Sequence record: PX655591.1
From: a phage
Length of the DNA: 38,819 nucleotides
Direction: 5' to 3' (one strand)
Part shown: one piece after another, positions 1,615 through 38,819 of the stretch
How positions within the stretch are numbered: position 1 is the stretch's first letter
Layout: each line of letters starts with the position of its first letter
Program-made: the position numbers and the translations under genes
Notes under the pieces: generated by a model
The model's database searches: none
What the model was told of the DNA's origin: nothing
Seen by the model: the letters and a program-made list of their open reading frames with translations, nothing else

Positions 1615-1684
1615 GTGATAGACGAGAGGTCATCGACTGATAGGTGGCCTCAAAGATTACCACTTGCATTAATAGGAGTTAACT

Positions 1685-2391: not shown

Positions 2392-5073
2392 ATGGGCGTC
2401 ATCTCTATTGACAAACACGACTTCTCTGATGTGTCGAACGCCATTGAGCCGTTTAACCTGCTGGCTGACCACTACGGGCAAGACCTTGCAGTCAAACAGC
2501 TTCAGCTTGAGCATGAGGCATACACTGAAGGCGAGCGACGTTTCATCAAGAACCTTGAGCGCCAGACCGAGCGCGGGGAACTAGCAGACAATCAGGTCGC
2601 CAAGCCTCTTATGCAGACTCTGGTTCCTAAGATTGCGCAAGCCGTCAAGGAGTGGCATGAAGGTCCAGACGGGAAGCTGTCAACCTCTCGTCCGAGCGTA
2701 GCGTTCACCATGTTGAGTACTGAAGAGAAGGCCGTAAAGGACCGCTCTTTGCGTATCTCCTGTGAGTCTGCTGCAGTTATCATACTGAAGGTCATCCTCT
2801 CCAAGCTGGTCAAGCCTGAAGGGATACCGATTACACCGATGGCCTCCGCGATAGGTCGCACACTTGAGGATGAAATCCGATTCGGTCGAATTCGTGACAA
2901 GGAGAAGGAGCATTTCAAGAAGGCGATAGCTGATAACCTGAACAAGAGAGTCGGGGCATCATACAAGAAGGCCTACATGCAAGCGGTTGAGACATCCATG
3001 TTGGAGCAAGGTCAACTGGAAGATGCGTGGGGGACTTGGAGTCCGACCGAGGCTGTCCACGTTGGTATCAAGATGCTTGAGATTGTCATCCAGTCAACAC
3101 AACTGGTCGAGCTTAAGCGTTACGGTGCTGGCAATGCAGCGGCTGACGTTGAGATGGTCCATCTGTCAGACTTCTGGGTCAAGAAGATGGCACAAAGAGG
3201 ATTCAGCCTTGCGGGTATCGCTCCAGTCTACCAGCCTTGCGTAGTTCCACCTAAGCCGTGGACTGGTGTCGTAGGCGGTGGGTACTGGGCCAAAGGTCGC
3301 AGACCACTACCACTGATTCGATTAGGGTCTAAGTCTGCGGTGGCGCGTTATGAAGATGTGTACATGCCTGAAGTCTATGACGCTGTGAATATCATCCAGA
3401 ATACGCCTTGGAAAGTGAACAAGAAGGTGCTGGACGTGGTGAACATGGTCGAGAAGCTGAACAACACGCCTATTGATGACATCCCGCAGATGGAACCACT
3501 GAAGCCTGAGGACTATGCGGGTGAGACCGAAGAGGAACTCAAGGCATGGAAGAAGACTGCTGCTGGTATCTACCGCCGAGAGAAGGCCCGGCAGTCACGC
3601 AGATTGTCACTGAGCTTTATCGTTAACCAAGCGAACAAGTTCTCTCAGTTCAAGGCCATCTGGTTCCCGTACAACATGGACTGGCGTGGTCGCGTCTACG
3701 CTGTGCCGATGTTCAACCCTCAGGGTAACGACATGCAAAAGGGTCTACTGACTCTGGCAGTCGGCAAGCCTATTGGTGCCGATGGCTTCAAATGGCTGAA
3801 GGTCCACGGTGCAAACTGCGCGGGTGTCGATAAAGTCACCTTCGAGGAGCGCATCAAGTGGGTGGAAGACAACCACGACAACATCATGGCTACTGCTAAA
3901 GCACCGATGGATAGCATTGAGTGGTGGGGCAAGTTAGACTCTCCGTTCTGCTTCCTTGCGTTCTGCTTCGAGTATGCTGGCGTAATGCACCACGGATTGT
4001 CTTACTCCTGCTCTCTACCGATAGCATTCGATGGGTCCTGCTCTGGGATTCAGCACTTCAGCGCTATGCTTCGTGACCACATCGGTGGACATGCAGTAAA
4101 CCTAACGCCATCCGGTAAGGTCCAAGACATCTACCGCATCGTGTCTGATCGCATTGAGGAGGAACTTAAAGTCCTGCTGGTTAACGGCACGGATAACGAG
4201 ATGGTCACTCACGAGGACAAGAAAACTGGTGAGATCACCGAACGTCTCAAGCTAGGGACACGAGAGCTGGCCCGGCAGTGGCTGACTTACGGTATGTCAC
4301 GTAAGGTCACTAAGCGTTCAGTAATGACTCTGGCCTACGGGTCGAAAGAGTACGGCTTCGCAGACCAAGTGTACGAGGACATCGTGATGCCAGCGATTGA
4401 CTCAGGGTCTGGCGCTATGTTCACCGAGCCAAGCCAAGCGTCTCGCTTCATGGCTAAGATGATTTGGGAAGCTGTGAGTGTGACCGTAGTTGCTGCTGTT
4501 GACGCGATGAAGTGGCTTCAAGGAGCTGCCAAGCTGCTGGCTGCTGAAGTGAAGGACAAGAAGACTGGAGAAATCCTGAAGCCTTGCCTCCCGGTACACT
4601 GGGTCACACCTGATGGGTTCCCGGTCTGGCAGGAATACCGCAAGAAGGATACCACCCGTCTGAACCTGATGTTCTTAGGGTCATTCAACCTTCAGCCTAC
4701 CGTCAACAGAGGCACGAAGAAAGAGCTGGACAAGCACAAGCAGGAGTCAGGCATTAGCCCGAACTTCGTCCACTCACAAGATGGTAGCCACCTCCGCAAG
4801 ACTGTAGTCCACACTCACCGCAAGTATGGAGTGATGTCATTCGCAGTGATTCATGATAGCTTCGGGACCATCCCTGCTGACGCTGAGTACCTGTTCCGTG
4901 GCGTCCGGGAGACGATGGTAGAGACCTACCGCGACAACGATGTGCTGCTGGACTTCTATGAGCAGTTTGAATGCCAGCTTCACGAGAGCCAGCGCGACAA
5001 GCTGCCAGAGCTTCCGAAGAAAGGTAAACTGAATATAGAAGACATATTGTCTTCCGACTTTGCATTCGCTTAA
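2392..5073 (+). CDS. Single-subunit DNA-directed RNA polymerase (T7 gene 1-like), 893 aa
   Basis: Extensive recalled identity to T7 RNAP (e.g. DGSCSGIQHFSAMLRD, ends SDFAFA). Confidence 0.97.
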   Translation: MGVISIDKHDFSDVSNAIEPFNLLADHYGQDLAVKQLQLEHEAYTEGERRFIKNLERQTERGELADNQVAKPLMQTLVPKIAQAVKEWHEGPDGKLSTSRPSVAFTMLSTEEKAVKDRSLRISCESAAVIILKVILSKLVKPEGIPITPMASAIGRTLEDEIRFGRIRDKEKEHFKKAIADNLNKRVGASYKKAYMQAVETSMLEQGQLEDAWGTWSPTEAVHVGIKMLEIVIQSTQLVELKRYGAGNAAADVEMVHLSDFWVKKMAQRGFSLAGIAPVYQPCVVPPKPWTGVVGGGYWAKGRRPLPLIRLGSKSAVARYEDVYMPEVYDAVNIIQNTPWKVNKKVLDVVNMVEKLNNTPIDDIPQMEPLKPEDYAGETEEELKAWKKTAAGIYRREKARQSRRLSLSFIVNQANKFSQFKAIWFPYNMDWRGRVYAVPMFNPQGNDMQKGLLTLAVGKPIGADGFKWLKVHGANCAGVDKVTFEERIKWVEDNHDNIMATAKAPMDSIEWWGKLDSPFCFLAFCFEYAGVMHHGLSYSCSLPIAFDGSCSGIQHFSAMLRDHIGGHAVNLTPSGKVQDIYRIVSDRIEEELKVLLVNGTDNEMVTHEDKKTGEITERLKLGTRELARQWLTYGMSRKVTKRSVMTLAYGSKEYGFADQVYEDIVMPAIDSGSGAMFTEPSQASRFMAKMIWEAVSVTVVAAVDAMKWLQGAAKLLAAEVKDKKTGEILKPCLPVHWVTPDGFPVWQEYRKKDTTRLNLMFLGSFNLQPTVNRGTKKELDKHKQESGISPNFVHSQDGSHLRKTVVHTHRKYGVMSFAVIHDSFGTIPADAEYLFRGVRETMVETYRDNDVLLDFYEQFECQLHESQRDKLPELPKKGKLNIEDILSSDFAFA

Positions 5074-5290: not shown

Positions 5291-5365
5291 CAGACCTACA
5301 GTTACTGGCCTTGTGGCTAGGAGCACTCGCAGTATTCACTTTAATCCAACGCAGAAGAGGTTAAC
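5288..5365 (+). CDS. Small hydrophobic peptide ORF, 25 aa (MTDLQLLALWLGALAVFTLIQRRRG)
   Basis: Hand translation; ATGA overlap with upstream ORF; very short. Confidence 0.25.
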
Positions 5366-5388
5366 CCTAAACTATCACTATAGGATTA
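5366..5388 (+). promoter_or_regulatory. Phage RNAP promoter (CCTAAACTATCACTATAGGATTA)
   Basis: Conserved 23-mer; position matches T7 phi1.1 promoters near the primary replication origin. Confidence 0.85.
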
Positions 5389-5423
5389 GACTCAAGGTCA
5401 TGACTCAAAGTCGTGGCCTTCAT
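5386..5423 (+). promoter_or_regulatory. RNase III-type processing hairpin (TAGACTCAAGGTCAT...GTGGCCTTCAT)
   Basis: Stem AAGGUCA/UGGCCUU with one G-U pair; same flanks recur at 12381 and 35433 with different loops. Confidence 0.6.
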
Positions 5424-5461
5424 GATTAACCCTAAATAAACACTACTGGAGATTTAACCAT

Positions 5462-5645: not shown

Positions 5646-5933
5646 ATGGGCATGTTCTCAAGAGCACATAGTGGCAACCTGAACACTCTGCGTCAGGCCA
5701 TCAACAACTGGCAGACCGAGACGGAATACAATGCAGAGATCAGCACTTGGTTTGACCCGGTGATGAACAGGACTTGTATCAAAGCGGTAATAGTCCACGC
5801 TCAAACAAGAGAGGTACTCATCGAGAAGGACTTCACGGAGTACCCAAATATCCACGCCGCAGATGTGGAGGCCATTGCGGTAGCCACTTGGTTCAATAAA
5901 CAGTTCAACGACTACACTGGTCGATTCCTTTAA
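5646..5933 (+). CDS. Gene 1.2-like protein (dGTPase inhibitor position), 95 aa
   Basis: Position and size; weak recalled similarity to T7 gp1.2 (MG...SGNL). Confidence 0.55.
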   Translation: MGMFSRAHSGNLNTLRQAINNWQTETEYNAEISTWFDPVMNRTCIKAVIVHAQTREVLIEKDFTEYPNIHAADVEAIAVATWFNKQFNDYTGRFL

Positions 5934-8066: not shown

Positions 8067-8084
8067 ACTATCACTGTAGGACAG
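8062..8084 (+). promoter_or_regulatory. Phage RNAP promoter variant (CCTAAACTATCACTGTAGGACAG)
   Basis: Conserved 23-mer with A to G at -3; upstream of SSB gene. Confidence 0.6.
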
Positions 8085-12377: not shown

Positions 12378-12380
12378 GTC

Positions 12381-12416
12381 TAGACTCAAGGTCATTCACA
12401 TCGAGTGGCCTTTATT
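12381..12416 (+). promoter_or_regulatory. RNase III-type processing hairpin (TAGACTCAAGGTCATTCACATCGAGTGGCCTTTAT)
   Basis: Same conserved flanks and stem as the 5386 and 35433 sites; intergenic before DNA polymerase. Confidence 0.6.
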
Positions 12417-12441
12417 ATTATTAGACTAAACGGAGGAAAAC

Positions 12442-16567: not shown

Positions 16568-16693
16568 TATACTGGGCCGGACTTCTAGCCATTTACTGCA
16601 TGTACAAGTGGTTCGGGTCGAACAACCGTCCTAAACAATGAGTCTAACCGATAGTCATATCCTATCAATACTACAGTCATCCATAGGTGAAAC

Positions 16694-16716
16694 ACTAAAC
16701 TATCACTATAGGGACT
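16694..16716 (+). promoter_or_regulatory. Phage RNAP promoter (ACTAAACTATCACTATAGGGACT)
   Basis: Conserved 23-mer; position matches T7 phi6.5. Confidence 0.85.
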
Positions 16717-17950: not shown

Positions 17951-19519
17951 ATGGCTGAACGTGAAGGGTTCGCTGCTGAAGGAGCCAAAGCGGTCTATGA
18001 CCGACTGAAGAACGGTAGACAGCCATATGAGACACGCGCTCAGAACTGTGCTGCTGTCACTATCCCGTCACTGTTTCCTAAGGAGTCCGACAACTCGTCT
18101 ACTGAGTACACAACTCCGTGGCAAGCTGTAGGTGCTCGCTGCTTGAACAACTTGGCTGCAAAGCTGATGTTGGCGTTATTCCCTCAGTCACCATGGATGC
18201 GACTAACAGTCTCAGAATATGAGGCCAAGACCCTGAGTCAGGACTCAGAGGCTGCTGCTCGTGTTGACGAAGGGCTTGCTATGGTAGAGCGTGTGTTGAT
18301 GGCCTACATGGAGACCAACAGTTTCCGTGTCCCATTGTTCGAGGCTTTGAAGCAGCTTATCGTCTCCGGTAACTGTCTGCTCTACATTCCAGAGCCTGAA
18401 CAGGGAACCTACAGTCCTATGCGAATGTACCGCTTAGTGTCCTACGTTGTTCAACGTGACGCTTTCGGTAACATCTTGCAGATTGTGACTCTCGACAAGG
18501 TAGCGTTTAGTGCTCTACCGGAAGACGTGAAGTCTCAACTCAATGCAGACGACTATGAGCCTGACACCGAGCTGGAAGTGTATACGCACATCTACCGTCA
18601 GGACGACGAGTATCTGCGCTACGAGGAAGTGGAAGGCATTGAGGTAGCAGGGACAGCTGGTTCCTACCCGCTTACCGCCTGTCCTTACATCCCGGTACGA
18701 ATGGTTCGATTGGACGGTGAAGACTACGGTCGTTCTTACTGCGAGGAATATCTGGGAGACCTGAACTCGCTGGAGACGATTACAGAAGCTATCACAAAAA
18801 TGGCTAAGGTAGCCTCCAAGGTAGTGGGCCTCGTTAACCCGAACGGAATCACGCAACCTCGACGTCTGAACAAGGCGTCTACAGGTGAGTTCGTGGCTGG
18901 TCGAGTTGAGGACATCAACTTCCTGCAACTGACGAAAGGTCAGGACTTTACGATTGCTAAGTCGGTGGCTGATGCTATCGAGCAACGTTTAGGCTGGGCC
19001 TTCCTTCTTAATAGTGCTGTTCAGCGTAATGCCGAGCGAGTCACTGCTGAAGAGATTCGTTATGTTGCTGGCGAACTGGAGGCGACCTTAGGTGGTGTGT
19101 ACTCAGTACAATCACAAGAGCTTCAGTTACCTATCGTCCGTGTGTTGATGAACCAGCTTCAGTCTGCTGGCATGATTCCTGACCTTCCGAAAGAAGCGGT
19201 AGAACCTACGGTCTCCACTGGTCTGGAAGCGTTAGGCCGTGGTCAAGACTTAGAGAAGCTGACTCAGGCAGTCAACATGATGACAGGGCTACAGCCTCTG
19301 CAACAGGACCCAGACATTAACTTGCCGACACTGAAGCTGCGACTGCTGAACGCCTTAGGCATTGACACCGCTGGTCTACTGCTTACTCAGGACGAGAAGA
19401 TTCAGCGCATGGCTGAACAATCAGCTCAAGGAGCCGTGGTCAACGGTGCGTCTGCTGCTGGTGCTAACATGGGTGCTGCTGTAGGTCAGGGAGCTGGTGA
19501 GGACATGGCTCAAGCCTAA
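17951..19519 (+). CDS. Portal (head-to-tail connector) protein (gene 8-like), 522 aa
   Basis: Extensive recalled identity to T7 gp8 (YETRAQNCA...TIPSLFPK...RMVRLDGEDYGRSY). Confidence 0.97.
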   Translation: MAEREGFAAEGAKAVYDRLKNGRQPYETRAQNCAAVTIPSLFPKESDNSSTEYTTPWQAVGARCLNNLAAKLMLALFPQSPWMRLTVSEYEAKTLSQDSEAAARVDEGLAMVERVLMAYMETNSFRVPLFEALKQLIVSGNCLLYIPEPEQGTYSPMRMYRLVSYVVQRDAFGNILQIVTLDKVAFSALPEDVKSQLNADDYEPDTELEVYTHIYRQDDEYLRYEEVEGIEVAGTAGSYPLTACPYIPVRMVRLDGEDYGRSYCEEYLGDLNSLETITEAITKMAKVASKVVGLVNPNGITQPRRLNKASTGEFVAGRVEDINFLQLTKGQDFTIAKSVADAIEQRLGWAFLLNSAVQRNAERVTAEEIRYVAGELEATLGGVYSVQSQELQLPIVRVLMNQLQSAGMIPDLPKEAVEPTVSTGLEALGRGQDLEKLTQAVNMMTGLQPLQQDPDINLPTLKLRLLNALGIDTAGLLLTQDEKIQRMAEQSAQGAVVNGASAAGANMGAAVGQGAGEDMAQA

Positions 19520-19537
19520 ACTATCACTATAGGAACA
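19515..19537 (+). promoter_or_regulatory. Phage RNAP promoter (CCTAAACTATCACTATAGGAACA)
   Basis: Conserved 23-mer overlapping portal stop; position matches T7 phi9. Confidence 0.85.
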
Positions 19538-19540
19538 ACT

Positions 19541-19632
19541 AGAGCCACTCAAAGTGGGACTTACTGTAGCGCACACAATGACCGTGGGTATTTAGCCTAA
19601 GTCATCCTACAGGTCCCACTTTGAGTGGCTCT
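19541..19632 (+). promoter_or_regulatory. Long hairpin in the gene 9 leader: perfect 20-bp inverted repeat (19541-19560 / 19613-19632) with a 6-bp extension after a 3-nt bulge
   Basis: AGAGCCACTCAAAGTGGGAC and its exact reverse complement; CTGTAG/CTACAG extension; read directly. Confidence 0.75.
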
Positions 19633-19663
19633 ACCTATTAACGACTTAAAGGAGAACGACTCA

Positions 19664-20548
19664 ATGTCACAATCAGTTTATGCCGAGTTCGGCGTTAGCT
19701 CTAATGCAATCACTGGTTCCGTTGAGGACCTGAACGAACACCAGAAGTCTATGCTTGAACAGGACGTAGCTGTTCGTGATGGCGATGACGCTATTACCTT
19801 CAAGCAACTGGAAGCCGAAAACGAAGAGGCGACCGAAGAAGACGAGAACGTCGAAGAGACTGAAGGTGAAGAAGACCACGAGTCCGATGACGAAGAATCT
19901 GAGACCGATGGGGAACAACCTGAGTTCATCGAACTTGGTGATGCACCTAAAGAGCTGACCGAAAGTGTTACAGCTCTGGATGAAAACGAAGCTGCATTCG
20001 ATGATATGGTGTCTTCTGCTGTAGAAGCTGGAAAGGTCACTGCTGATGAAATTACCGCTATCAAGGCTGAATACGCCAAGGACGGTAAGCTGTCTGACGC
20101 ATCCTACGCTAAGTTACAGGAAGCAGGTTACACCAAGCGTTTCGTAGATTCGTTTGTCCGTGGTCAGGAAGCTCTGGCTGAACAGTATGCTGCTGGTGTG
20201 GTTCGCTACGCTGGTGGTGCTGAACAGTTTAACCGCATCCTGTCTCACCTTGAGTCCAACGACCCGTCAACTCGTGAAGCACTGGAAGCTGCTATCGTTC
20301 GTAAGGACATTGCGACTACCAAAGCTCTACTGAATCTGGCTGGCAAGACTCTGGGTAAAGCTGTAGGCGTTAAACCTCAGCGTACCATCACCAATCAGGC
20401 TAAACCTGTTGTCGCACCTAAGGCTCCTCAGACCGAAGCATTCAGCTCCAAGGCTGACATGATTAAGGCTATGAGTGACCCGCGCTACCTGCGAGACGCT
20501 AAGTACACGATGGAAGTTCGCGCTAAGGTAGCTGCCTCGAGCCTGTAG
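19664..20548 (+). CDS. Capsid assembly (scaffolding) protein (gene 9-like), 294 aa
   Basis: YAKLQEAGYTKRFVDSFVRGQEALAEQY...KAMSDPRY matches recalled T7 gp9; RBS AAAGGAGAA; start taken at ATG 19664. Confidence 0.9.
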   Translation: MSQSVYAEFGVSSNAITGSVEDLNEHQKSMLEQDVAVRDGDDAITFKQLEAENEEATEEDENVEETEGEEDHESDDEESETDGEQPEFIELGDAPKELTESVTALDENEAAFDDMVSSAVEAGKVTADEITAIKAEYAKDGKLSDASYAKLQEAGYTKRFVDSFVRGQEALAEQYAAGVVRYAGGAEQFNRILSHLESNDPSTREALEAAIVRKDIATTKALLNLAGKTLGKAVGVKPQRTITNQAKPVVAPKAPQTEAFSSKADMIKAMSDPRYLRDAKYTMEVRAKVAASSL

Positions 20549-20551
20549 TTG

Positions 20552-20574
20552 ACTAAACTATCACTATAGGGAGA
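20552..20574 (+). promoter_or_regulatory. Phage RNAP promoter, best consensus match (ACTAAACTATCACTATAGGGAGA), phi10-like
   Basis: Identical to T7 core CACTATAGGGAGA; followed by GGGAGACC...GTTTCCC 5' stem-loop as in the T7 gene 10 leader. Confidence 0.9.
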
Positions 20575-20674
20575 CCAAGAGATACTCAATGTTTCCCTAT
20601 TACTTCAGTCCATACGGATTGGGCGTACAGTAAGTAATAAACTTTATCTTTCAATTGAATAGGAGAATTATCAT

Positions 20675-21718
20675 ATGGCAAACGTTCCGGGTCAGAAAAT
20701 TGGTACAGACCAAGGTAAAGGCAAATCTAGTTCCGACGCTCTGGCGTTGTTCCTGAAGGTATTTGCTGGTGAAGTCCTGACCGCATTCACTCGCCGCTCT
20801 GTAACTGCTGACAAGCATATTGTCCGTACCATTCAGAACGGTAAGTCTGCTCAGTTCCCGGTCATGGGTCGCACCTCTGGTGTGTATCTGGCTCCGGGTG
20901 AGCGACTGTCCGATAAGCGTAAAGGTATCAAACATACCGAGAAAGTGATTACCATTGATGGTCTGCTGACTGCCGATGTGATGATTTTCGACATTGAAGA
21001 CGCTATGAACCACTATGACGTGGCTGGCGAGTATTCCAACCAGTTAGGTGAAGCGCTGGCTATCGCTGCTGATGGTGCGGTTCTGGCTGAAATGGCTATC
21101 TTGTGTAACCTACCTGCCGCTTCCAACGAGAACATCGCTGGTCTGGGCACTGCGTCCGTACTGGAAGTTGGTAAGAAAGCAGACCTCGACACCCCGGCTA
21201 AACTGGGTGAAGCAATCATCGGTCAACTGACCATTGCTCGTGCTAAGCTGACCTCCAACTACGTTCCTGCTGGCGACCGTTACTTCTACACCACGCCTGA
21301 CAACTACTCTGCAATCCTCGCGGCTCTGATGCCGAACGCTGCTAACTATGCTGCGCTGATTGATCCAGAGACTGGTAACATCCGTAACGTGATGGGCTTC
21401 GTTGTTGTTGAAGTTCCGCATCTGGTACAGGGTGGTGCTGGTGAGACTCGTGGTGAAGATGGTATCACTATCGCTTCCGGTCAGAAACACGCATTCCCGG
21501 CGACTGCTACTGGCGACGTTAAAGTTGCTATGAACAACGTTGTGGGTCTGTTCTCTCACCGTTCTGCTGTTGGTACTGTGAAGCTGCGTGACTTGGCGCT
21601 GGAACGTGACCGTGACGTCGATGCTCAGGGCGACTTGATTGTTGGTAAGTACGCTATGGGTCATGGTGGTCTGCGCCCAGAAGCAGCAGGCGCACTGGTT
21701 TTCAGCCTAGCGGCGTAA
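20675..21718 (+). CDS. Major capsid protein (gene 10A-like), 347 aa
   Basis: Extensive recalled identity to T7 gp10A (HTEKVITIDGLLTADV...AMGHGGLRPEAAGA). Confidence 0.97.
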   Translation: MANVPGQKIGTDQGKGKSSSDALALFLKVFAGEVLTAFTRRSVTADKHIVRTIQNGKSAQFPVMGRTSGVYLAPGERLSDKRKGIKHTEKVITIDGLLTADVMIFDIEDAMNHYDVAGEYSNQLGEALAIAADGAVLAEMAILCNLPAASNENIAGLGTASVLEVGKKADLDTPAKLGEAIIGQLTIARAKLTSNYVPAGDRYFYTTPDNYSAILAALMPNAANYAALIDPETGNIRNVMGFVVVEVPHLVQGGAGETRGEDGITIASGQKHAFPATATGDVKVAMNNVVGLFSHRSAVGTVKLRDLALERDRDVDAQGDLIVGKYAMGHGGLRPEAAGALVFSLAA

Positions 21719-35428: not shown

Positions 35429-35432
35429 GCGT

Positions 35433-35468
35433 TAGACTCAAGGTCATTACTATATGTAGTGGCCTTTA
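35433..35468 (+). promoter_or_regulatory. RNase III-type processing hairpin (TAGACTCAAGGTCATTACTATATGTAGTGGCCTTTAT)
   Basis: Third copy of the conserved hairpin; position matches T7 R18.5. Confidence 0.6.
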
Positions 35469-35529
35469 TGGTTAACACTAACCAGTGGAGGAGACTCTAC
35501 GTGAAATCTGATAAACCGGGAGGGCAACT

Positions 35530-38751: not shown

Positions 38752-38785
38752 TGACGATGAGTTTTGGACCAAAAGTTTGAGAACA

Positions 38786-38819
38786 CATCTCACAGTTCAA
38801 GAACCTCAAGTCTCCCCCA
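38786..38819 (+). other. Probable true genome left terminus / start of terminal repeat (TCTCACAGTTCAAGAACC...CCCCCA, continuing into window position 1)
   Basis: Window end joined to window start reads TCTCACAGT...CCCCCATAGG, resembling the recalled first bases of the T7 genome (TCTCACAGTGTACGG...CCCCCATAGGGGG). Confidence 0.55.

Follow-up and report, generated by a model that had tools for sequence, protein, structure and literature searches.

A clade-specific enlarged hairpin in the gene 9 leader of a T7-like phage, structurally outside the canonical RNase III site family

The T7-group phages are the textbook case of ribonuclease III (RNase III) processing of phage messages, and their processing sites are considered a closed and well-defined set. 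In other systems, namely the leaders of the Escherichia coli rnc and pnp genes and the N leader of phage lambda, hairpins cut on both strands by RNase III control the downstream gene. Here we describe a long hairpin in the leader of gene 9, the scaffold gene, in a 38.8-kb stretch of phage DNA (record PX655591.1; "the window" hereafter, meaning the whole stretch analysed), which is the genome of a T7-like phage of the genus Kayfunavirus (K1F group). Among the elements of T7-like phages, this one is best filed as an RNase III-type or leader stem-loop, structurally outside the canonical family and undescribed in the literature searched. Our best reading is that it represents a clade-specific, enlarged version of a leader hairpin that is structurally conserved, yet hypervariable in sequence, among Kayfunaviruses.

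The hairpin is built from two 21-nt arms (19540-19560 and 19613-19633) that are 100% complementary and 52 nt apart, so that the perfect 20-bp inverted repeat reported in the initial annotation is real and slightly longer. The 3-nt bulge and the CTGTAG/CTACAG extension described there are present as well, giving a stem of 27 bp (21 perfect pairs plus 6 across the bulge) rather than about 26 bp, in an element of 94 nt. Above this stem, G19571 pairs with C19606, followed by a 5-bp helix (19578-19582/19601-19605). RNA folding of 19538-19636, a check that had been proposed for the locus, returns the long hairpin at -54.8 kcal/mol, compared with -24.0 +/- 3.2 kcal/mol for 200 dinucleotide shuffles, none of which folds as well (z = -9.7). 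It is the longest inverted repeat with arms within 150 nt anywhere in the window, its arm sequence has no further copy there, and by our own arithmetic only about 1e-6 perfect 21-nt inverted repeats within 150 nt are expected in 38.8 kb; on both the folding and the expected number, the suggestion that so long a stem is unlikely by chance holds. Its location at the 5' end of the promoter-9 transcript is likewise supported, although the spacing requires correction: with the transcript start placed at G19532 by analogy with the T7 consensus, the stem begins at +9, preceded by 8 nt rather than 9, and these eight nucleotides (GGAACAAC) are unpaired in all 13 carriers.

We recovered the hairpin from 14 GenBank records, which represent 13 distinct phages (among them Citrobacter phage SH3, Escherichia phage HC12 and RDN8.1), and from one further IMG/VR contig, always at the same site. 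Pairing and variability statistics were taken from 13 aligned carriers with 10 distinct sequences, in which 99.5% of pair cells are paired. Variation affects 3 of the 54 stem positions and 2 of the 27 pairs, and all three variable positions retain pairing: one pair alternates between A-U and G-C (five of the ten distinct sequences each), and one G-C pair has become G-U in three phages (two distinct sequences), while all remaining substitutions are apical. The interval used to count the 3' side of the extension was one base off; no variable site lies there, and the counts are unaffected. Stem columns are consequently less variable than those of the apical part (3/54 versus 10/36, P = 0.005), and far less variable than third codon positions in the flanking genes (135/253, or 53%; P = 7e-12). 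In IMG/VR contig 3300045988_000155 (95% identical), a TAA insertion opposite the TTA bulge produces 30 perfect bp with a folding energy of -64.5 kcal/mol, and this insertion is the sole gap in the best 2.3-kb alignment block between contig and window. The G-U pairs, those of the tip included, can form only in RNA of the + strand, which is the transcribed strand. Given that changes in pairs keep pairing, that G-U is tolerated on the transcribed strand, and that the stem is more conserved than synonymous sites, a role at the RNA level is indicated, and we consider it very probable that the hairpin is a transcribed RNA stem-loop under selection in the gene 9 leader.

Conservation among relatives, which the initial annotation had put forward as a further check, gave a divided answer. 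The hairpin is kept in 13 phages, yet these amount to only about 6% of roughly 217 related phages; in the remainder, the slot (window 19537-19636) is occupied by one of eight or more sequences unrelated to it. The borders of this slot are conserved, with GGAAC(AAC) on the left, and (T)ACCTATTAAC followed by the Shine-Dalgarno sequence (AAGGAG, 19649-19654) and ATG of gene 9 on the right; in the right border (19634-19663), 3 of 30 columns vary among the aligned carriers. Across 24 IMG/VR loci there are 20 distinct slot sequences belonging to nine unrelated types, in leaders of 57-135 nt. A query of eight concatenated cassettes matched 217 phage records and, among the 60 matches listed, one place was matched to one cassette type, nearly all at the intergenic site. 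Most common is the TH20 type; 14 records belong to the hairpin type. Flank identity to the window is 94-96% in phages with other cassettes and 92-96% in hairpin carriers, and the same cassette is also present in phages whose flanks differ by 15%. Because cassette type is thus independent of flank similarity, cassettes must reassort by recombination, presumably with the promoter and the ribosome-binding region serving as homology anchors for the exchange. The phi10 leader is conserved in the same loci, unlike the slot between genes 8 and 9. As a separate observation, the TH20-type cassette has matches of about 82% in Klebsiella KP32-like (Przondovirus-like) phages, some of them within an annotated capsid-assembly gene, which hints that the TH20 version may be older or shared across genera.

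In all nine unrelated types, the first and last 14 nt of the slot pair with one another through 6-11 pairs, as against about 2-4 in shuffles (P = 0.03-0.22 per type, and about 0.002 by Fisher combination). Since every unrelated cassette type closes its ends, the slot requires a stem-loop. The hairpin version is extreme among these, with a slot fold z of -9.4 compared with -1.2 to -4.2 for other versions. A general conservation of this hairpin in the genus is ruled out, as leaders of the TH20, ST17 and NS1 types have fold z values near 0 and only the short closing stem in common. As the other versions are unrelated and shorter hairpins, a hairpin is all that the slot's generic function demands, and a 21-bp duplex is unnecessary for it. 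The less expected of our results is this leader slot, in which structure is kept while sequence is exchanged among at least nine versions in otherwise 95%-identical phages. One interpretation, to which we attach only a small probability, is that the gene 8-9 leader acts as a diversifying, horizontally exchanged RNA cassette, in which a hairpin is needed while sequence and length are pressed to change, for example by host RNases or by RNA-sensing or RNA-targeting defences acting on this abundant late leader. The version with 21-30 bp would then constitute a distinct state, either an RNase III-dependent switch uncoupling portal from scaffold or a released, stable decoy hairpin RNA.

With respect to the canonical RNase III sites, we constructed a covariance model from seven T7 sites (R0.3, R0.5, R1, R1.1, R1.3, R4.7 and R18.5), for which we take the coordinates to be those of Dunn and Studier and whose retrieved sequences show the expected hairpins, together with three sites from the window. 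The model finds four canonical T7-type sites in the window (1616-1666, 5384-5435, 12378-12427 and 35430-35481) at 31.8-56.8 bits. The initial annotation was therefore right that the hairpin differs from the other candidate RNase III sites, although these are four and not three. The site at 1616-1666 (31.8 bits, E ~9e-7) is from outside the training set and, as T7 R1 does, precedes the RNA polymerase gene. No site was found by the model in the gene 8-10 (phi9) region of 24 related loci or of T3. On the evidence of this model the hairpin is ruled out as a homologue of canonical T7-type sites, though both of its arms contain site-like motifs. It nevertheless lies in non-coding RNA between genes and beside a phage promoter, as canonical sites commonly do. 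Indeed, a promoter followed immediately by a processing hairpin is the normal layout in this phage and in T7: the window promoter at 5361-5385 is directly followed by the canonical site at 5384-5435, and in T7 phi1.1A is followed by R1.1, while phi6.5 and phi13 are situated inside their RNase III sites.

The motif ACTCAA(A/G/T)GT occurs at 16 sites in the window compared with 1.5 expected, eight of these being on the - strand. On the + strand, copies occupy RNase III sites, positions immediately behind promoters, the 5' arm of the hairpin and the start of gene 9; those on the - strand are inside genes, with the exception of the copy in the 3' arm (19618-19626), and may reflect codon usage (CTT GAG). 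The segment 19608-19642 (CAGGTCCCACTTTGAGTGGCTCTACCTATTAAC) resembles the whole of T7 R1.1 (CAAGGTCATTCGCAAGAGTGGCCTTTATGATTGAC, T7 5855-5895) at about 21 of 35 positions in a manual alignment, with a different pairing register. As a lead only, the hairpin may have been derived from a promoter-plus-site module by inverted duplication. In addition, a 24-nt, 83%-complementary inverted repeat (16641-16664/16725-16748) encloses the promoter at 16689-16713, downstream of the exonuclease gene; its predicted fold (-31.5 kcal/mol, z = -3.9) can be formed only by read-through RNA, and its layout matches that of the T7 R6.5 hairpin, which encloses phi6.5.

For E. coli RNase III, an ideal substrate measures 22 bp, each half-site providing 11 bp or more between the cut and the distal box, and long duplexes are degraded to pieces of 11-15 bp (PMC3867540, PMC1540722). 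In vivo, the enzyme favours stems within 5' untranslated regions (UTRs) as well as between cistrons, making double cuts with 2-nt overhangs (PMC6212723). What sets this version of the leader apart is its unbroken duplex of about two helical turns, which is the feature that defines a substrate of the enzyme. The hairpin has the generic helix size of such substrates, with 21 bp paired perfectly, 6 more across the bulge, and in one relative a perfect stem of 30 bp. When half-sites are judged by the qualitative published rules, in which G-C pairs at proximal-box positions 2 and 4 are inhibitory and a G-C pair is called for between the two cuts, several registers with A/U at the two proximal-box positions and a helix of at least 11 bp are available in every variant, clustering around the CUCAAAGU tract. 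The earlier proposal that the hairpin is an RNase III substrate thus remains plausible in terms of a duplex of about 22 bp and of permissive registers, whereas the hairpin failed the test for membership of the canonical-site family. Judging from these features, we think it rather probable that host RNase III cuts the hairpin in vivo. The enzyme would bind and cut the lower stem, most likely at its A/U-rich centre (CUCAAAGU/ACUUUGAG), and the cut would separate gene 8 RNA from gene 9 RNA, so that every gene 9 message would have the same processed 5' end, on which stability or translation of the scaffold mRNA would depend. The hairpin would serve in this way both as the leader of the promoter-9 transcript and as the gene 8-gene 9 intercistronic region of upstream read-through RNA. 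Cuts on both strands, unlike those at canonical sites, would leave no protective 3' hairpin on the upstream portal RNA. As a secondary effect, the leftover 3' arm might refold onto the Shine-Dalgarno sequence and AUG, forming a 5'-terminal hairpin that could damp translation or protect the end. The best explanation that we can offer for the locus is consequently an enlarged leader hairpin in which selection maintains the long version for cutting by RNase III, a tentative proposal whose chances we put a little short of even.

Several observations weigh against this explanation. Since about 94% of related phages have no long duplex at this place, the slot cannot have RNase III cutting as its generic function. 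Between genes 8 and 9, T7 and T3 contain only the phi9 promoter and lack an RNase III site. Even with filters off and a cutoff of E <= 10, the covariance model has no match in 19532-19660. In every register at least one half contains an inhibitory G-C pair, and the change from A-U to G-C removes the best half-sites in 7 of the 13 phages, so that no specific cleavage site is conserved. The complementarity of the 3' arm to the ribosome-binding region, on which the proposed refolding depends, has as its core a 6-nt motif that is common in the genome. No mention of the hairpin was found in the genome paper of the related phage SH3 or in text searches on K1F and Kayfunavirus. Finally, the A-U/G-C double change and the bulge-filling insertion are each explicable by one DNA template switch in a quasi-palindrome, and since single switches suffice, they offer weaker evidence of selection on RNA than two independent mutations would. 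Given that template switching also explains these two pairing-keeping changes, the low variation of the stem between lineages becomes the strongest argument for selection.

Template switching also underlies an alternative in which the element is a near-neutral DNA palindrome, perfected and enlarged during replication and carried in a recombining cassette where any hairpin would do. Both the A-T to G-C change and the TAA insertion are exactly as single template switches would give, the arms are themselves small palindromes (CCACT-N3-AGTGG), and a slot that accommodates at least nine unrelated sequences of 57-135 nt, reassorting independently of their flanks, is in keeping with such a history. 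However, copying from arm to arm would leave the substitution rate between lineages unlowered, and yet only 2 of 27 pairs vary, compared with 53% of synonymous and 28% of apical positions; moreover, a G-U pair persists uncorrected in three phages, and long palindromes are generally costly in replicating DNA. We regard a near-neutral origin as improbable. A weightier competitor, though one we still hold to be unlikely, is a stability or insulation hairpin acting without RNase III processing, which would block 5' scanning by RNase E, 3' exonucleases on gene 8 RNA, or long-range pairing of the gene 9 ribosome-binding region, the extra length being incidental. Known stabilisers of this kind include the 5' stem-loop of T7 phi10 and the REP hairpins between cistrons. 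Every cassette type has its closing stem, of only 6-11 bp, in the same place, late leaders in the window (starts at 8079, 10445, 20569 and 32604) begin with 5' stem-loops, the T7 phi9 and phi10 leaders close from +1, and in folding the Shine-Dalgarno/AUG region is more accessible in intact RNA than after removal of the 5' arm. Yet unpaired 5' nucleotides defeat classic ompA-type 5'-terminal protection, and the eight that precede this stem mean that a pure 5'-end stabiliser fits this version less well; on this ground the hairpin departs from 5'-terminal stabilising stem-loops of the ompA or T7 phi10 type, and other leaders of the genome do pair from +1. Nor would a stabiliser need 21-30 uninterrupted pairs, whose pairing has nevertheless been kept perfect and even extended, and a duplex of this length, offering several registers without shielding G-C pairs, would be expected to attract RNase III anyway (PMC3867540).

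A more elaborate sub-case of the favoured explanation, selection of the long version for cutting, is an RNase III-dependent switch with three segments, in which the 5' arm resembles the gene 9 start, the two vying for the 3' arm: translation would proceed from intact RNA, whereas RNA that has been cut, or that lacks the 5' arm, would cover its own Shine-Dalgarno sequence and AUG. Positions 19618-19632 are 80% complementary to 19653-19667, and in folding, RNAs starting at 19618-19622 are some 9-10 kcal/mol more stable than RNA lacking the arm, with an unpaired probability of the Shine-Dalgarno sequence of about 0. The 5' arm and the phi10 leader/gene 9 start have AGAG..ACTCAA.GT in common, and the two positions that vary in the initiation region carry C or U opposite G, with pairing kept. 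The same initiation-region variants, however, occur in phages with other cassettes and hence do not amount to real covariation; the core of the complementarity is over-represented genome-wide, and the short 5' fragment could remain annealed once the stem has been cut at its middle. Refolding is thus a possible switch of translation or stability, without covariation support, and the three-segment version of it appears to us a rather remote prospect.

It is very improbable that the element is of some other kind, such as a miniature mobile element, a gene for a small protein, a terminator or a site where a protein binds the DNA. The hairpin does end in terminal inverted repeats with TA at both ends. 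However, it is present in one copy per genome and always at the same site, and a mobile element or host-derived repeat is ruled out accordingly: no copy with both arms exists in 185,579 species genomes (three single-arm chance hits) or in JGI metagenomes (three single-arm hits), a search for the arm pattern in 5,426 E. coli genomes returned nothing, and the hairpin occurs only at this site in 50,697 phage records and in only two Kayfunavirus contigs in IMG/VR. PHANOTATE predicts a 31-aa open reading frame (ORF) over the hairpin in phages EPr2 and vB_Aba_01KA (419-514 in our loci L005 and L008, respectively), but this frame is not conserved, being broken by a TAG at 19593-19595 in the window and in 3300045988_000155 and by a 1-nt insertion in EcL30g, and the annotated hypothetical protein is almost certainly spurious. 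An intrinsic terminator (class I, T-phi type) is excluded as well, the hairpin tail (ACCUAUUAAC) being without a U-run, and a search for terminator-like sites in 19300-19900 found none. A known RNA family is likewise ruled out, with no Rfam 15 hit at gathering thresholds and, below these, only generic microRNA-precursor matches on both strands. Arms lying 52 nt apart, moreover, are not operator-like, which argues against a protein-binding site in DNA.

The genomic setting of the hairpin is summarised in Table 1. In a search of phage records, a 601-nt stretch around the hairpin showed 95% identity to Citrobacter phage SH3 and matched 221 records, chiefly Escherichia, Salmonella and Enterobacter Kayfunaviruses. 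The large ORFs are all on the + strand and follow the gene order of T7, with RNA polymerase at 2392-5073 followed by the replication genes and then by portal, scaffold, capsid and the remaining genes. The stop codon of gene 8 falls within the promoter preceding the hairpin, which is one of 12 copies of CCTAAACTATCACTATAGGRA in the window, and both T7 and T3 have phi9 at the equivalent position. Two further features were observed. The phi10 leader (20569-20597) has a 5' stem-loop, GGGAGAC...GTTTCCC, like that of T7 phi10, with AGACTCAAGG, the 5' half of an RNase III site, in its loop, the length of which varies in relatives via short tandem duplications (e.g. loci L021 and L023). Short direct-repeat arrays of AACCATAAGTCACAACC-like units close to the left end (180-277), with a related copy close to the right end (38768-38794), resemble the terminal repeat arrays of T7-like phages.

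Table 1 Features of the gene 8-gene 9 region and related motif sites (window coordinates)
Feature	Position	Strand	Evidence or remark
Gene 8, portal / head-to-tail connector	17951-19519	+	Pfam PF12236, E = 8e-97; portal annotation in relatives
Phage-RNA-polymerase promoter (phi9 equivalent), TCAAGCCTAAACTATCACTATAGGA	19510-19534	+	Predicted start G19532
Unpaired 5' leader GGAACAAC, left border of the variable leader cassette	19532-19539	+	Unpaired in predicted fold; kept in nearly all cassette types
5' arm of 21-bp stem, TAGAGCCACTCAAAGTGGGAC	19540-19560	+	Includes ACTCAAAGT, motif of the 5' half of canonical RNase III sites
Bulge TTA, 3 nt	19561-19563	+	Predicted fold
6-bp extension, 5' side, CTGTAG	19564-19569	+	Invariant in 13 phages
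Apical part: internal loop, ATGAC/GTCAT helix, weak tip with G-U pairs	19570-19606	+	Most variable part
6-bp extension, 3' side, CTACAG	19607-19612	+	Directly abuts 3' arm
3' arm of 21-bp stem	19613-19633	+	Distal half UUGAGUGGCUCU also complementary to gene 9 ribosome-binding region
Right border and translation initiation region, CCTATTAACGACTTAAAGGAGAACGACTCA	19634-19663	+	Kept across all cassette types
Gene 9, scaffold / capsid assembly protein, 294 aa	19664-20548	+	Pfam PF05396, E = 1e-67; same ATG annotated in relatives
Capsid gene	20675-21718	+	Pfam PF21703
Cassette versions			Include TH20 type, 20-nt AGGTCAGACTCTTGGCCTGT type and 30-bp hairpin variant
ACTCAA(A/G/T)GT, example sites	2319, 5390, 5403, 12384, 19547, 19659, 20584, 35436		

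The series of leader versions constitutes a natural experiment on the late-gene leader hairpin, on messenger RNA (mRNA) stability and processing, and on the portal:scaffold:capsid ratio. Such information is of practical value, as Kayfunaviruses are being used and engineered for therapy, among them K1F and phages of Salmonella Typhi and Enterobacter, and T7-like phages supply promoter-leader modules that are standard expression parts.

Several described systems can be compared with the hairpin. REP/BIME, ERIC and the Correia elements of Neisseria are also transcribed intergenic palindromes that fold into RNA hairpins; such palindromes can stabilise upstream RNA, and Correia elements can be cut by RNase III. 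These are, however, dispersed and present in many copies, whereas the hairpin is single-copy and confined to one site in one phage genus. The T7 phi10 leader (GGGAGACCACAACGGTTTCCC) and ompA-type hairpins are likewise promoter-proximal, that of phi10 being in a late-gene leader, yet their stems start from +1 and have 4-10 bp, while the present stem starts from +9 and is three times longer. With the rnc, pnp and lambda N leaders the hairpin shares a long, nearly regular stem in a 5' UTR, and in those systems cleavage takes away or reshapes the 5' structure and alters mRNA stability or translation; they have unique sequences, mapped cuts and feedback loops, whereas here cutting is inferred and the hairpin is one interchangeable version of a leader. 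The rnc operator, rncO, is discussed in PMC3867540.

The canonical T7-group sites are, like the hairpin, intergenic or leader hairpins in the RNA of T7-like phages, often right after a phage promoter, and there is resemblance at the level of motifs, with ACTCAA(A/G)GT in the hairpin's 5' arm and a 3' arm and flank (GAGTGGCTCTACCTATTAAC) similar to the canonical 3' half (GAGTGGCCTTTATGATTGAC). Canonical sites, however, follow the pattern ACUCAAGGUC(A/G)...GUGGCCUUUAUGAUU over about 50 nt, with short upper and lower helices around an asymmetric internal loop, and it is this asymmetric loop that leads to a single cut and leaves a protective 3' hairpin. The element described here instead extends over 94 nt, pairs its partners in another register and forms an uninterrupted duplex of 21-30 bp. 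If the favoured explanation is true, it would represent a structurally different kind of site, a near-perfect duplex of two turns cut on both strands, at a place where T7 and T3 have none.

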